A stretch of 40,041 nt of DNA from a virus, in the IMG/VR virus record IMGVR_UViG_3300045988_056052, one strand, 5' to 3'. Below are positions 1,330-40,041 of this stretch, piece after piece. Every line of letters begins with the position of its first letter. Positions within the stretch are counted from its first letter, which is position 1. Below the pieces are notes generated by a model. It worked only from the letters and a program-made list of their open reading frames with translations, did no database searches and was not told the origin of the DNA. The position numbers were made by a program, and so were the translations under genes.

Positions 1330-2094
1330 ATGCGAGATGATTACAAGAATCAGATGGCCAGTAAGATTGCTGGAAGATATCAAGATTTAGAACTCCGAAT
1401 CATGAAGGATATTGTCCGGCGAATCAAGAAAACCGGAAAGATTACAAGCACAGCAGACTGGCAGATTAACAGATTGCTTATTTTGGGTTATTCTTCAGAA
1501 GACATTGAAAAGGAAATTAAGAAAACGCTCGATGCTTCTTATCCAGAAATGTTTGAGTTGTATGATAAGGTAATTGATTGGGAATATGTCAGGAATAAGG
1601 ACATATATGAACAAATCAACGTAGAGCACATACCATTTGACCAGAACGAGCAACTTAAGCAGATTACAGATGCAATTATTGATCAAAGTTTTGCAGATTT
1701 GGAAAATATAACAAACTCGCTTGGTTTTTACTTAGATTATGGAGATGGTAAAAAGGTTATAACACCGCTGGCGCAGGTTTATACAAATTATCTTGATTCA
1801 GCATGTTTCGATATTGTAACCGGAGCATTCGATTACAACAGTGTGTTGCGTAGAGTTGTGACTCAGCTCACCAATAGTGGACTTCGACAGATCGATTATT
1901 CCTCCGGAAGAGCCAATCGGGTTGATGTAGCTGCAAGGAGAGCTGTCATGACTGGCGTTGCAAAGCTTACGCATAAGATAACCGAATATCATATGGAACA
2001 GCTCGGTTGTGAATATGTGGAAGTAAGCTGGCATGCAGGGGCAAGACCTTCACATTCTGTATGGCAGGGAAAAGTTTACAAATGGAATAAATAG
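1330..2094 (+). CDS. Minor head / head-morphogenesis protein (MuF / SPP1 gp7 / minor capsid protein 2 type), N-terminal half only
   Basis: It follows the portal. It ends with the family motif VEVSWHAGARPSHSVWQGKVY and then stops (KWNK*). The rest of the family motif resumes at 3228. Confidence 0.8.
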   Translation: MRDDYKNQMASKIAGRYQDLELRIMKDIVRRIKKTGKITSTADWQINRLLILGYSSEDIEKEIKKTLDASYPEMFELYDKVIDWEYVRNKDIYEQINVEHIPFDQNEQLKQITDAIIDQSFADLENITNSLGFYLDYGDGKKVITPLAQVYTNYLDSACFDIVTGAFDYNSVLRRVVTQLTNSGLRQIDYSSGRANRVDVAARRAVMTGVAKLTHKITEYHMEQLGCEYVEVSWHAGARPSHSVWQGKVYKWNK

Positions 2095-2097
2095 TAC

Positions 2098-2126
2098 TTG
2101 ACTTTTCGTGGCACAATAATTACAAT
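2098..2126 (+). promoter_or_regulatory. Sigma-70-type promoter of the inserted cassette (TTGACT-17 nt-TACAAT)
   Basis: TTGACT at 2098-2103, a 17-nt spacer, TACAAT at 2121-2126. It lies 4 nt after the MuF N-half stop codon and 34 nt upstream of the RHH start. Confidence 0.6.
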
Positions 2127-2141
2127 TTAATTGTGGCACAA
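2108..2141 (+). promoter_or_regulatory. Putative operator: direct repeat GTGGCACAA x2 flanking the -10 element
   Basis: GTGGCACAA occurs at 2108-2116 and 2133-2141 (25-bp period), bracketing TACAAT. This is a plausible autoregulatory site for the downstream RHH protein. Confidence 0.45.
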
Positions 2142-2159
2142 AAAAGCGAGGTGAATGAT

Positions 2160-2330
2160 ATGAGTCCACGAACAGGAAGACCTAAGATAGATAAACCAAA
2201 GACAATAGAGGTTAAAGCGAGAATTGATGAAGAAACAAATGAAAAATTGATGAAATATTGTAAAGAAAATCAGTTAAACAGAACCGATGTTGTGAGAATG
2301 GGGATTGAAAAGGTTCTTGAACACAAATAG
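2160..2330 (+). CDS. Ribbon-helix-helix (CopG/Arc-like) DNA-binding protein, 56 aa
   Basis: SD GAGGTG then ATG 2160. The sequence MSPRTGRPKIDKPKTIEVKARIDEETNEKLMKYCKENQLNRTDVVRMGIEKVL has the RHH beta-strand / helix / helix pattern. The track ORF starts earlier, at 2133. Confidence 0.7.
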   Translation: MSPRTGRPKIDKPKTIEVKARIDEETNEKLMKYCKENQLNRTDVVRMGIEKVLEHK

Positions 2331-2444
2331 AACGTTGCCACGCTACCAACGAAAACAACGTTCTATCAAACCGAAGGAATCCCTTCATGAAATATTTTAA
2401 CATGTCTTGGGATTCCTTGCAATGAGAAAGCGAGGAGAAAACAA

Positions 2445-3161
2445 ATGCAGTTACCAGAAACAGTAGAAGTAAAAGGAATGAAAGTTCTTACGACTCGGCA
2501 AATAGCTGAAGCGTATGGAGTGTCTAAGGACAAGATAATTTACAATTTTAACTATAATAAAGACAGATATGTTCTTGGAAAACACTATATTGAGGTGTTT
2601 GGGGAAGAATTAAGGAGATTGAAAAGGACATGTGAAATTCAAAGCTCCTTCAAATACGCCAAGACATTGTATCTTTGGACAGAGAAAGGTGCATTGCTCC
2701 ATGCCAAATCTTTGAACACGGATAAGGCGTGGGAAGTATATGATTATCTGGTGGATTTTTACTTCCGAGCAAAGGAAGAACCGAAAGAAACAAAGCCTGT
2801 TCCTGTTGATACAGTACCAGTCGTAAGTAGGCAGAAAGATAAGAAGCTTCCACAGATTGACAATCCAATCGGGGTACTTAAGCTGTTGCTTCAGGTAGCA
2901 GAAGATAATGGCATTGGAGTGAGTTCCTACCCGTTCAAGACGTTTGAGAGCGTATTGAAAAACGGAAACATCGGTATCAGAACTGGCGTGACGGTCGAAA
3001 AGGCATGTTATGAACTGGCGTGGGAGCTGTCTCATGCGTTTATCCACTATCGGAATGGGGATTTGATTAAGAGTCCGCTGGCAAAGGATTACAATGATCA
3101 GGCAACACGGTCAGCTGAGTTGATCCTGAAAGTTCTGAATGTAAAAATGAGTCAATTGTAA
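2445..3161 (+). CDS. ORF6N/KilA-N-type DNA-binding domain fused to an ImmA/IrrE-like domain (antirepressor-like)
   Basis: The N-terminus (VLTTRQIAEAYGVSKDKIIYNFNYNKDRYVLGKHYIEV...LYLWTEKGALLHAKSL) looks like ORF6N. The C-terminus GIRTGVTVEKACYELAWELSHAFIH parallels AIRKDMNTVQKACTLAEELGHHH of the ImmA homologue at 21645..22109. Confidence 0.65.
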   Translation: MQLPETVEVKGMKVLTTRQIAEAYGVSKDKIIYNFNYNKDRYVLGKHYIEVFGEELRRLKRTCEIQSSFKYAKTLYLWTEKGALLHAKSLNTDKAWEVYDYLVDFYFRAKEEPKETKPVPVDTVPVVSRQKDKKLPQIDNPIGVLKLLLQVAEDNGIGVSSYPFKTFESVLKNGNIGIRTGVTVEKACYELAWELSHAFIHYRNGDLIKSPLAKDYNDQATRSAELILKVLNVKMSQL

Positions 3162-3175
3162 AAAAACAGTTATTT

Positions 3176-3210
3176 AAAGAGAGTCTTATTTAAGGCTCTC
3201 TTTTGTTGTG
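3176..3210 (+). terminator. Rho-independent terminator closing the cassette
   Basis: A 10-bp stem, agagagtctt (3178-3187) / aaggctctct (3192-3201), with loop attt, followed by tttgttgtg. Confidence 0.65.
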
Positions 3211-3227
3211 GAGGGGGTGATGCGAGC

Positions 3228-3308
3228 ATGGCAGATTATCCAGACTTTGTCAGTAGTACAGGTTATGGGACCGGTGAAGGATTAGGAGGTTGGAACTGCT
3301 ACCATTGA
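3228..3308 (+). pseudogene. Restart of the MuF gene (C-terminal half): 26 codons ending at an in-frame TGA
   Basis: SD GGAGGGGG then ATG 3228: MADYPDFVSSTGYGTGEGLGGWNCYH, then TGA at 3306-3308. The same frame continues open (HEYYPFFPGISQRNW...) into ORF 3456..4193. Confidence 0.6.
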
Positions 3309-3455
3309 CACGAGTATTATCCGTTCTTTCCTGGCATTTCACAGCGCAACTGGACAGATGAATGGCTGGATGCGAAGAACGAGGAAGAGGCAGAACCTAA
3401 GACGTTTGACGGCAGAGAGTATACCCTGTATGAAGCAAAACAAAGGCAACGCCAA

Positions 3456-4193
3456 ATGGAGACAGCCATGAGGGCACAGCGTGAAAAAGTCAAATTATTG
3501 CAGGATGGTGGTGCTGATCAGGACGAAGTCATTCTGCACAAAGCGAAATATCAAGGGCAGCTTAACGAGTATTCCCGGTTCTGCAGGAAGATGGGTCTCA
3601 CGGAAGAGCTTGAGCGTATTTATCTGGACATGAAAGGGAGAGCTGCGCCAGATGCAAGAAAAATGTCGTTAAATGATACGAGTGACAAGTGGAAGCGTGC
3701 AGCGAGATCAGAGCTTAAGAAAGATGAAGAATCATTGTCATGGCGAGAAAAAGAAACGGCAGTTATATATGATTCAAATGGAAAATATCTGTTCACAAAA
3801 CGGGGGGATGAAAGAAGTGTAAGTTTTACAAAGTCAGAAATCAAAAAAATGAAGAATTGTATTGTTTCACATAATCACCCGTCTGGAGCATCGTTTTCTC
3901 TGGCGGATTGGACAGTCTTTAAAAGAGCTAAGTTGCAAGAACTTAGAGCCATAGGGGAAGACAAGGTTTATTATATTCGAGTCGGTGAAAAAGCTGAACA
4001 ATTATGGAATATGCCTGATGATGACTTTATTGAGCTGTATGAGGATATACGAAAGAAAATACGAAAAGAGTATCATAATCTGTACAAGAGTGGTAAAATA
4101 AATAAAAAAGAACGATTGCTACTGAGTTCCGATGAGTACAATAGGATTATCGCTGAGAAAGTAGGAGTAAAGTATGGAAAAGAATATTTCTAG
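3456..4193 (+). CDS. MuF C-terminal region plus JAB/MPN-like domain (longest uninterrupted ORF of the C-terminal half)
   Basis: It is in frame with 3228..3308. The N-terminal part is the helical MuF tail (QRQMETAMRAQREKVKLL...). The C-terminal part has E(98/100)...H139-N-H141-P-S-G-A-S-F-S148-L-A-D151, a JAMM-like signature with spacing one residue shorter than canonical HxHx7SxxD. Confidence 0.7.
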   Translation: METAMRAQREKVKLLQDGGADQDEVILHKAKYQGQLNEYSRFCRKMGLTEELERIYLDMKGRAAPDARKMSLNDTSDKWKRAARSELKKDEESLSWREKETAVIYDSNGKYLFTKRGDERSVSFTKSEIKKMKNCIVSHNHPSGASFSLADWTVFKRAKLQELRAIGEDKVYYIRVGEKAEQLWNMPDDDFIELYEDIRKKIRKEYHNLYKSGKINKKERLLLSSDEYNRIIAEKVGVKYGKEYF

Positions 4194-4323
4194 GTCTGAA
4201 AAGAAAGTTAATATTTCTGAGATGCCACCAGGCAAAAGTTTTGATGATTATACAGATGATACAATTTTTGTTTTAGACGATTCAGATGATGACAATTGGG
4301 AAGAAGAGGAAAATATAGATTAG
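4174..4323 (+). CDS. Small, highly acidic protein (49 aa), overlapping the end of the MuF-JAB ORF
   Basis: SD GTAGGAG then ATG 4174: MEKNISRSEKKVNISEMPPGKSFDDYTDDTIFVLDDSDDDNWEEEENID. It is too short for the ORF track. The last 27 residues include 14 Asp/Glu. Confidence 0.45.
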   Translation: MEKNISRSEKKVNISEMPPGKSFDDYTDDTIFVLDDSDDDNWEEEENID

Positions 4324-39868: not shown

Positions 39869-40041
39869 TTATTTCAGAAAAAAAGGAATTGATACAGTAG
39901 ATGCTTCGTTTTACCGGAAGATCGATGAGTGGACCAGTTGGTATAATTCTAACGTCAAGAAGTTCACGTATTATAAAGTCTATTCCGGACGCGGTACATG
40001 TAAGAGATGCCGCAGAAAAAGTATGGGGATGGCAAAAAAAC
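39855..40041 (+). CDS. Portal protein, N-terminal 62 codons (continues at base 100 of the window via the circular junction)
   Basis: SD GGGAGGTGA then ATG 39855, overlapping the terL stop. MNIFNYFRKKGIDTVDASFYRKIDEWTSWYNSN... runs off the window in the same frame as 3..1328. Confidence 0.85.
   Translation, partial: MNIFNYFRKKGIDTVDASFYRKIDEWTSWYNSNVKKFTYYKVYSGRGTCKRCRRKSMGMAKK
39943..40041. repeat. Second copy of the 99-bp terminal repeat
   Basis: Identical to 1..99. Confidence 0.95.

Follow-up and report, generated by a model that had tools for sequence, protein, structure and literature searches.

A RadC-related JAB-fold domain as probable exchangeable cargo of a phage MuF protein encoded in pieces

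Introduction

The pattern of polymorphic toxins and polyvalent proteins, with which the locus reported here is compared, was described by Zhang et al. 2012 (PMC3482391), Jamet et al. 2017 (PMC5576092) and Iyer et al. 2017 (PMC5512222). The cargos of phage MuF proteins are thought to be delivered together with the DNA, and RadC domains are present in phage and plasmid polyvalent proteins (PMC5512222). Zhang et al. and Iyer et al. predict action on nucleic acids, with the groove for the tail of a ubiquitin-like protein (Ubl) predicted to be absent in the RadC and toxin JAB clades (PMC3482391, PMC5512222); the main text of Jamet et al. mentions neither JAB, RadC nor MPN (PMC5576092). Here we report a computational analysis of the open reading frame (ORF) at positions 3456-4193, and of its surroundings, in a viral DNA of 40,041 nucleotides (IMG/VR record IMGVR_UViG_3300045988_056052), the full length of which is referred to as the window. 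An original prediction, made from the letters of this DNA, had read the ORF as a MuF protein with a C-terminal JAB/MPN-like domain, possibly an isopeptidase delivered with the virion.

We propose that the domain encoded at nt 3663-4190 is, with better than even but far from complete confidence, a catalytically competent, RadC-related JAB/JAMM metallohydrolase that forms exchangeable cargo of MuF, and that it would act as an effector with an acidic inhibitor and be made past an in-frame UGA. The proposal rests in part on the fold, on the invariant E...HNH-x6-S-xx-D set, on the occurrence of a large family at MuF C termini and in polyvalent proteins, on the filling of the same slot by toxins in relatives, and on the acidic ORF that lies downstream.

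Results

A full JAMM catalytic set with a shortened spacer

Features of the JAB-bearing ORF:

3663..4193, + strand: JAB/JAMM-fold domain (AlphaFold2, Foldseek against the PDB, BFVD, hhalign against YicR, family of 3073 representatives)
3753..3755, + strand: E100 codon, for the Glu of the JAMM set (invariant column E31, alignment A2)
3870..3908, + strand: metal-ligand and catalytic motif H139...D151 (frame reading, 41-sequence alignment, hhalign, shuffle test)

The product of ORF 3456-4193 has 245 amino acids (aa) and contains ...SLSWREKETAVIYDSNGKYLFTKRGDERSVSFTKSEIKKMKNCIVSHNHPSGASFSLADW...; its frame reads KNCIVS-H139-N-H141-P-S-G-A-S-F-S148-L-A-D151, with nt 3870-3908 forming the codons for HNHPSGASFSLAD, exactly where the original prediction had placed the motif. 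The spacing, HxH-x6-S-xx-D, is one residue shorter than the canonical JAMM arrangement HxH-x7-S-xx-D, as that prediction had also stated, and the short spacer is the norm of the family, being present in 147 of 175 domain instances as against canonical spacing in 7. Since the protein holds only four His residues, and since the pattern H.H.{6,7}S..D arose in 87 of 200,000 shuffles of its sequence (4.4e-4), the motif is real rather than fortuitous.

Across 41 aligned relatives, which are diverse and share 20-44% identity with the window protein, invariance is limited to E100, G109, H139, H141, S148 and D151, i.e. the JAMM catalytic set and one glycine. Two glutamates, E98 and E100, had been put forward as candidates (R-E98-K-E100-T at nt 3744-3758, the codons of E98 and E100 at nt 3747-3755); because E100 is invariant among the 41 relatives and E98 is not, the functional Glu is predicted to be E100 and not E98. 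Position 3456 is simply the first ATG of a frame that is open from 3309, directly after an in-frame TGA at 3306-3308. The earlier description of a MuF ORF beginning at 3456 thus holds in that the JAB domain follows the MuF helical tail, but what begins there is only the C-terminal piece of a split MuF gene. The split, the absence of a start codon directly after the TGA and the acidic ORF downstream of the domain had not formed part of the original prediction.

One family member from an ENA contig (P0003, 258 aa) is the same as P0001 except for 17 missing residues (SHNHPSGASFSLADWT), which are exactly the catalytic motif; it may be an allele inactivated in nature or a variant of assembly. Inactive MPN domains abound in eukaryotic complexes and, taken with this motif-less variant, they lend some credit to the idea that the domain has kept its fold but serves only for structure or binding, without catalysis. 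That all five catalytic residues stay unchanged among relatives of 20-44% identity, in which nearly all else varies, makes such a role extremely improbable.

A divergent JAB clade nearest RadC

A confident AlphaFold2 model of residues 70-245 of the ORF product, built from a 7-sequence alignment, scored 87 in the predicted local distance difference test and 0.82 in predicted template-modelling (TM) score. Among the 50 PDB matches listed by Foldseek for this model, the best four, all to proteins with the JAB (deaminase-like) alpha/beta fold, were to Pyrococcus JAMM1 (5ld9 and 5lda) and Chlorobium RadC (2qlc), with E-values of 4e-3 to 2e-2 and probabilities of 0.97-1.0 (PfJAMM1 5ld9/5lda, E 4e-3, probability 1.0; RadC 2qlc, E 6e-3, probability 0.99), and all later matches had probabilities of at most 0.14. 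The only further Ubl-specific JAMM recognised among the 50 was BRCC36 (probability 0.13), and no entry among them was described as Cap3, Bil, Rpn11, AMSH or CSN5.

In BFVD, which holds predicted viral structures, the top matches were C-terminal regions of 'minor capsid proteins' (485-630 aa) from gut siphoviruses (E about 1e-10, TM-score about 0.7), followed by phage proteins named MPN or RadC (E 1e-3 to 1e-4). Matches to large eukaryotic DNA viruses were also seen at E 1e-4 to 1e-2, including Frog virus 3 3R, Ectocarpus virus EsV-1-200, iridoviruses, a Heterosigma virus and a homologue of F317L of the African swine fever virus type. Zhang et al. 2012 (PMC3482391) report Tox-JAB-2 relatives from such viruses, a group to which the present matches may or may not belong.

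At the sequence level, hhalign of the family alignment (A2) against an alignment of E. coli YicR/RadC (A3) gave a probability of 93.8% and an E-value of 1.8e-7, with HNHPSG...S..D aligned across a one-residue gap. RadC was also the commonest weak Pfam match among the relatives (8 of 41, with 0 of 41 passing). Two polyvalent members, P0017 and P0028, reach the whole-protein gathering score for RadC, no single stretch passing alone; in P0028 the best RadC stretch falls inside the stretch matched by the family profile. Searches of PDB sequences (phmmer and two profile searches) returned either no match or RadC at E 0.28 plus spurious designer-propeller matches. Neither NCBIfam, PHROGs nor Pfam holds a family for the JAB domain alone. 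PF20582, the N-terminal helix-hairpin-helix of chromosomal RadC/YicR, was not matched, the MuF helical tail standing upstream of the JAB domain instead, and there was no match to Toxin-JAB1 of Pfam; DUF4329 was weakly matched by 1 of the 41 members (E 2.5e-3).

Because the domain stays below the Pfam threshold and lacks an NCBIfam or PHROG family, yet gives a profile-profile match to YicR, we file it, from its sequence relationships, as a divergent clade of the JAB superfamily that is nearest to RadC, uncovered by current models and outside PF04002 as now defined. The JAB/MPN-like domain of the original prediction is accordingly upheld by the model with its JAMM1 and RadC matches, by the complete catalytic set and by the hhalign result; the profile and structure searches that had been suggested as its check did yield a JAB-fold match, with JAMM1 and RadC the best in the PDB and YicR found by hhalign.

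The MuF cargo slot

The family profile, searched exhaustively, matched 3073 cluster representatives at E<=1e-3; at E<=1e-10 the number is 923, so that the family comprises at least 923 clusters at the stricter threshold. Architectures were counted in the best 158 family matches. The JAB domain lies at the extreme C terminus in 123 of these, and a MuF-type domain is present in 85 (35 of the min_cap2 type and 51 of the Mu_F type). Tandem JAB copies, up to four, occur in 29, and 19 exceed 700 aa; in the long polyvalent proteins the JAB domain adjoins ADP-ribosyltransferase, kinase, XkdF protease or pyrophosphatase domains. P0017, P0027, P0028, P0036 and others, for instance, have 2-4 tandem JAB-like copies in polyvalent proteins of 600-1900 aa, near ADP-ribosyltransferase, kinase, XkdF protease or inorganic pyrophosphatase domains. 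The domain also stands alone, in proteins of about 190 aa, and in some phages (L009 1654-1684, L163 3023-4664) the JAB protein has an ORF to itself, which shares about 30 nt with the end of a Mu_F-type MuF gene.

Two IMG/VR contigs (L140 and L141) encode an intact MuF-JAB fusion of 567 aa, with a JAB domain 99% identical to that of the window; carrier and cargo also share one polypeptide in P0011, in P0019 and in gp13 of the Dorea phage DO134P1. We further examined 110 IMG/VR contigs with an uninterrupted NCYHEYYP motif as a set of intact relatives. About half of the MuF genes in this set end after ...GRVAPVPKRFRR, without cargo; the remainder carry about 20 unrelated C-terminal domains after a common ...ERIYxDMxGR junction. 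These sibling cargos include a Toxin-deaminase of the BURPS668_1122 type (PF14424), a PBECR2 RNase and DUF6883, and several others have no Pfam match. The 99% identical JAB domain on intact MuF and the roughly 20 other cargos bear out the earlier suggestion of a variable C-terminal cargo slot, and the frame of an effector delivered by the virion, already established for MuF cargos, is a reasonable one for the JAB domain. In the relatives L011-L137, most non-JAB cargos are preceded by a common linker of about 60 aa, ATNxKxQNxxFxxEMIxNAxxDxxQYxxYKxxLGDxxGSLxxFxQxKYND, which is absent from the JAB cargos and looks like a pre-toxin recombination module.

These architectures also bear on whether the domain might be a cis-acting processing peptidase that frees MuF or neighbouring effectors at head maturation or after ejection. 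Releasing peptidases are a frequent component of polyvalent proteins and polymorphic toxins (PMC5512222, PMC3482391), and up to four JAB copies stand beside ADP-ribosyltransferase, kinase and protease domains, as such a role could predict. The commonest architecture, however, is MuF and JAB alone, which leaves no other part to release; the stand-alone versions of about 190 aa, the swapping of JAB with bona fide toxin domains at one junction, and the phage's own Prp protease gene likewise speak against processing, which we consider very unlikely.

An acidic partner and the question of an isopeptidase

One further feature directly follows the JAB domain:

4174..4322, + strand: 49-aa acidic ORF, candidate inhibitor or immunity partner (isoelectric point 4.05, 17 D/E, homologues after JAB elsewhere)

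This ORF overlaps the end of the JAB ORF by 20 nt, and the isoelectric points of the two products lie far apart, at 9.26 for the JAB domain versus 4.05. Homologous acidic ORFs of 42-50 aa follow the JAB domain in six other contexts (L002, L006, L009, L030, L143 and the cultured Dorea phage DO134P1), seven with the window; in DO134P1 the acidic partner is gp12 and the JAB-bearing MuF is gp13. A homologue was found after every close JAB relative examined, irrespective of the form of the JAB domain (joined to a MuF of the min_cap2 type, joined to one of the Mu_F type, or stand-alone). The consensus runs K-V-K-I-S-E-x-P-x-x-K-x-F-E-D-Y-P-E-D-T-x-F-V-L-D, followed by an acidic tail ending in W-E-D. 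Together these properties suggest that the JAB domain and the acidic ORF form a toxin-immunity or effector/enzyme-inhibitor pair.

In the Logan contig L002 (5900-6010), the portal gene is joined out of frame to mid-MuF (…PEDYKERYIAKSSYTASVDLER*), with loss of the portal C terminus and of the N-terminal half of MuF; MuF-C, the JAB domain and the acidic ORF are kept. This contig is either a defective prophage or a chimeric assembly.

The fold, the slot and the acidic partner all bear on the role first proposed, in which the packaged JAB domain would be an isopeptidase that strips Ubl conjugates of host defences (Bil, or Cap2 of the cyclic-oligonucleotide-based antiphage signalling system, CBASS) and so acts as an anti-defence effector. 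Delivery of MuF cargos with the DNA (PMC5512222) would suit such a role, as would the full JAMM catalytic set and the top PDB match, PfJAMM1, which cleaves the ubiquitin-like SAMP2. RadC is, however, an equal structural match and the sole family with sequence-profile support, and besides PfJAMM1 only the low-probability BRCC36 represents Ubl-specific JAMMs among the 50 PDB matches listed. The predicted loss of the Ubl-tail groove in RadC and toxin JAB clades (PMC5512222, PMC3482391) points the same way; the JAB domain alternates with nucleic-acid-targeting toxins in the cargo slot, and an immunity-like partner would be needless for a harmless deconjugase. Our literature search found no phage-borne JAB domain acting against Bil or CBASS, nor any anti-defence activity of a phage or plasmid RadC/JAB protein. 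We thus find no specific support for the isopeptidase, anti-Bil and anti-CBASS roles, which we regard as distinctly unlikely. A RadC-like hydrolase is the better reading, and the evidence favours a Zn-hydrolase cargo in need of neutralisation in the producing cell.

A MuF gene split by a cassette

Features upstream of the JAB domain:

1330..2094, + strand: N-terminal piece of MuF (Phage_min_cap2), 254 aa, ending ...WQGKVYKWNK* (Pfam PF06152, E 3e-77; phrog_581, minor head protein)
2095..3227, + strand: cassette splitting MuF, about 1.1-1.2 kb (blastn against the intact gene, Pfam, PHROG, promoter match)
2098-2126: promoter-like site TTGACT-17-TACAAT within the cassette (match 10/12)
2133 or 2160 to 2330: ribbon-helix-helix (RHH) gene (weak Pfam RHH/RelB matches; PHROG repressor families)
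2445-3161: ORF6N antirepressor-like gene (Pfam ORF6N, E 4e-18; PHROG anti-repressor families)
3178-3209: hairpin and T-run (read by eye; uncalled by the terminator scan)
3228..3308, + strand: 26-codon mini-ORF MADYPDFVSSTGYGTGEGLGGWNCYH (ATG at 3228; ribosome-binding site (RBS) GGAGGGGG at 3210-3217; ends with TGA at 3306-3308)
3309..3662, + strand: C-terminal helical piece of MuF, HEYYPFFPGIS...ERIYLDMKGRAAPDARK (aligns with RG-TP1 gp19 and the intact L140 MuF)

ORF 1330-2094 covers positions 2-244 of the 366 of PF06152, the remaining portion of the model being found 1.2 kb downstream. The uninterrupted MuF homologue gp19 of Ruminococcus phage RG-TP1 reads ...WQGKVWSKEQLVTVCGLGTVTGLLGANCYHEYYPF..., and, by blastn, the window has about 1237 nt (2078-3314) in place of about 77 nt in the uninterrupted gene of the relative L140. 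As the insert has its own promoter-like site, genes and RBS, it is described as a gene cassette. A group I or group II intron was also considered as the interruption; Rfam gave no match at the gathering threshold over the whole window, or at E<=1 over 1900-3500.

Two types of cassette were observed: most loci have an RHH gene, a small ORF and an HNH/AP2 endonuclease of 222-228 aa (phrog_374, E 3e-86), and the window has an RHH gene and ORF6N. The cassette ends (…VYKWNK* and the mini-ORF peptide) are identical in all loci bar one Val-to-Ala variant, and the flanks are mosaic. Because most related loci carry the HNH/AP2 endonuclease, the cassette is suggested to be a homing-type mobile element; the intact allele ...AACTGCTACCACGAGTATTATCC... 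may be a candidate target of the 222-aa HNH/AP2 protein of the type-A cassette. In the window, a near-palindromic or repeated pair, GTGGCACAA / ATTGTGGCAC, flanks the -10 of the cassette promoter (2108-2139), and at the equivalent place type-A cassettes show another inverted repeat, a perfect one, GTCCGTACA…TGTACGGAC. It is plausible that these repeats are operators of the cassette RHH repressor.

A conserved in-frame UGA between two His codons

The mini-ORF and the C-terminal piece are in one frame, ...GGDAS-MADYPDFVSSTGYGTGEGLGGWNCYH-TGA-HEYYPFFPGIS..., with no start codon in the latter ahead of 3456. The TGA is set between His codons (CAT TGA CAC, 3303-3311); the codon before it is always His CAT and the codon after it is always His, CAC or CAT. 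The arrangement ...TGGAAYTGYTAYCAY-TGA-CAYGARTAYTAYCC... was found in 15 IMG/VR contigs, 2 Dorea genomes, 16 metagenome contigs and 3 ENA/Logan contigs, and the TGA is kept in all of the approximately 37 cassette-bearing loci, the window included (IMG/VR, GTDB genomes, metagenomes and ENA/Logan). A search that permitted any codon at this position found the same contigs, always with TGA, and the mini-ORF start was confined to the same 15 viral contigs; cassette and TGA are hence completely linked. One cassette-bearing locus comes from a viral-particle metagenome.

Coding constraint continues beyond the stop. Wherever contigs cover it, the downstream frame is uninterrupted to a normal stop, with a length of 268-302 aa, and at least 5 different cargos are represented. 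In 16 distinct split sequences, codon positions 1/2/3 account for 0/1/7 variable columns in the mini-ORF, the peptide of which is nearly invariant across related loci, and for 17/11/43 in the 49 codons from the TGA to the first ATG. The ratio of nonsynonymous to synonymous polymorphism (pN/pS) among split loci is 0-0.23 in the post-TGA segment, and the same further downstream. The start-less frame after the TGA thus appears, from these substitution patterns, to be under purifying selection. An in-frame stop conserved in relatives, with constraint continuing downstream, is the feature observed, although recombination with intact genes could give the same signal.

Several accounts of the stop were tried and rejected. 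For genome-wide TGA reassignment or a suppressor tRNA, the sole tRNA is a tRNA-Met, and TGA ends at least 8 ordinary genes here as well as other cargo ORFs. For selenocysteine or a stimulatory RNA structure after the TGA, the predicted folds differ by locus and the downstream sequence is free at synonymous sites. For reinitiation close by, the nearest in-frame ATG lies 50 codons on, and the TTG called as start in relatives is CTG here; codon 10 varies among ATT, ATA, TTG, TTA and CTG. For a -35/-10 promoter on the TTGACA at the TGA, there is no acceptable -10. The conserved TGA, with a constrained start-less frame behind it, suggests that the UGA may be bypassed by readthrough or by a 6-nt hop, and a hop from His CAU to His CAC would restore the exact ancestral NCYH-EYYPF.

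The same data invite a contrary account, namely that the JAB piece is dead here, the cassette and TGA having inactivated the C-terminal part of MuF, and that its conservation is inherited from intact genes invaded by a selfish homing cassette. Such an account would explain the absence of a start codon from the TGA to 3456, the HNH endonuclease of most cassettes, the near identity of cassette ends everywhere amid mosaic flanks, the 97.9% identity of the window C-piece to an intact gene, and the circulation of defective variants (L002 and P0003). It has difficulty with a frame that stays open after the TGA, wherever covered, in about 37 loci from three collections and with several cargos; with a cassette whose RBS, ATG and 26 MuF-like codons fall precisely into the frame of the downstream piece; and with the pN/pS of 0-0.23 between closely related split loci. 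The window, moreover, is a complete genome: its last 99 nt (39943-40041) are an exact copy of its first 99 nt (1-99), with the portal gene spanning the junction, and because of this terminal overlap it is taken as a complete phage genome of 39,942 bp, circular (or terminally redundant). With this, and with the locus from viral particles, we hold a dead gene to be unlikely, if less so than an isopeptidase.

Discussion

A proposed route for the JAB domain

In the mechanism that we propose, the JAB domain would ride into the capsid on MuF and enter the next host cell with the DNA as an effector, and the 49-aa acidic protein would keep it inactive, in an immunity-like manner, in the producing cell or lysogen. 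Its substrate may more likely be a nucleic acid, a nucleotide-linked molecule or a non-Ubl amide bond than a Ubl conjugate; such a substrate is favoured because of the prediction for RadC and Tox-JAB, and it fits a basic enzyme (isoelectric point 9.3) with an acidic partner. A mobile cassette has cut MuF, the cargo piece most likely being made only by ribosomes that start at 3228 and pass the UGA at 3306. UGA followed by C is a notoriously leaky context. The passage would be either readthrough of this UGA-C or the 6-nt hop between the two His codons, and a need for such bypass would mean that little of a potentially harmful protein is made. A more specific version, in which a cassette that carries an HNH endonuclease in most loci has cut MuF in a Dorea phage lineage, and its restart ORF with the UGA acts as a recoding device that doses a virion-borne toxic effector, itself one half of a new JAB-hydrolase and acidic-inhibitor pair, is possible, and we put it forward tentatively.

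Several observations weigh against the proposed hydrolase cargo and its synthesis past the UGA. The selection signal after the TGA could stem by descent from intact genes: in this mosaic locus, split sequences are spread over 7 clades among intact ones, the window C-piece has the near identity to an intact gene given above, and a homing cassette that repeatedly invades intact genes could mimic such a signal. Comparison of predicted folds between loci found no conserved RNA structure after the TGA. With respect to the fold, the Foldseek TM-scores are modest (0.36 and 0.46), which is attributed to extra helices, and no PDB match reached E<=1e-3; Pfam RadC (PF04002) scores 11.5-11.7 bits on the window protein against a cut-off of 22.1, which is not passed, and the family hidden Markov model reaches RadC 2qlc among PDB sequences at only E 0.28. 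Finally, the inhibitor role of the acidic ORF is read from position and charge alone.

Significance

What is new here is limited but real, and is of two kinds: a very large RadC-related JAB clade, uncovered by current models, with a dedicated acidic partner; and, in this lineage, a MuF gene in pieces, with its cargo part beyond an in-frame UGA that is conserved universally. Among the unexplained domains of phages, plasmids and prophages, those of the RadC-like JAB type rank with the commonest, with no substrate known for any of them, and the present clade of at least 900 clusters is nearly always joined to MuF or repeated in polyvalent proteins, with its acidic partner. The cultured Dorea phage DO134P1, with gp13 and gp12, offers a tractable system for work on RadC-type function and on MuF cargo injection. 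Should ribosomes bypass the UGA, the locus would offer, in a Firmicutes phage, one of the rare natural examples of programmed readthrough or hopping, and would carry a warning for annotation, in that gene callers now emit truncated proteins of 245-275 aa here.

Comparison with known systems

The closest described relatives are the RadC-like JAB proteins (PF04002; E. coli YicR; C. tepidum RadC 2qlc; polyvalent RadC, PMC5512222), with which the window clade shares the JAB fold, the E...HNHPSG...S..D set and an occurrence in virion-associated multidomain proteins of phages. It differs from them in having a loop from HxH to Ser that is one residue shorter, in lacking the PF20582 domain, and in having its own N-terminal helix, C-terminal helical hairpin, E-x-R-A-V motif and obligate acidic partner ORF. 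Tox-JAB-1 and Tox-JAB-2 (DUF4329) (Zhang et al. 2012, PMC3482391) are alike as exchangeable C-terminal toxin modules with a following immunity gene, and are predicted nucleases rather than Ubl peptidases. Their motif, however, is H[ST]H and not HNH, their carriers are RHS proteins or those of type VI and type VII secretion systems and not MuF, and their partners are Imm65 or NTF2 as opposed to a small acidic protein. The MuF polymorphic toxins (Jamet et al. 2017, PMC5576092) share the MuF N-terminal carrier, the hypervariable C terminus, the small downstream ORF and the setting in temperate Firmicutes phages, but the carrier gene in the window is in three pieces (1330-2094, 3228-3308 and 3309-4193), and MuF and cargo are not one polypeptide there.

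The JAMM isopeptidases of Ubl systems (PfJAMM1 5ld9, CBASS Cap3, the Bil deubiquitinase) are alike in fold and catalytic residues and differ in the HxH-to-Ser spacing; no Ubl, E1 or E2 gene was noticed near the JAB domain, no dedicated search of the window having been made for one.

With respect to the split gene, free-standing homing-endonuclease cassettes are known to split genes, as mobE does nrdA in Aeromonas phage Aeh1, and minor capsid proteins are made by UGA readthrough (Qbeta A1) or by short ribosomal hops. The split MuF gene resembles the Aeh1 nrdA/mobE case in that a structural gene of essential type is cut by an endonuclease-bearing cassette with its own translation start, and it resembles Qbeta A1 as a candidate, judged from sequence alone, for a minor virion protein behind a leaky UGA. 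It differs from both the homing and the readthrough cases in that the restart ORF itself stops after 26 codons, between two His codons.

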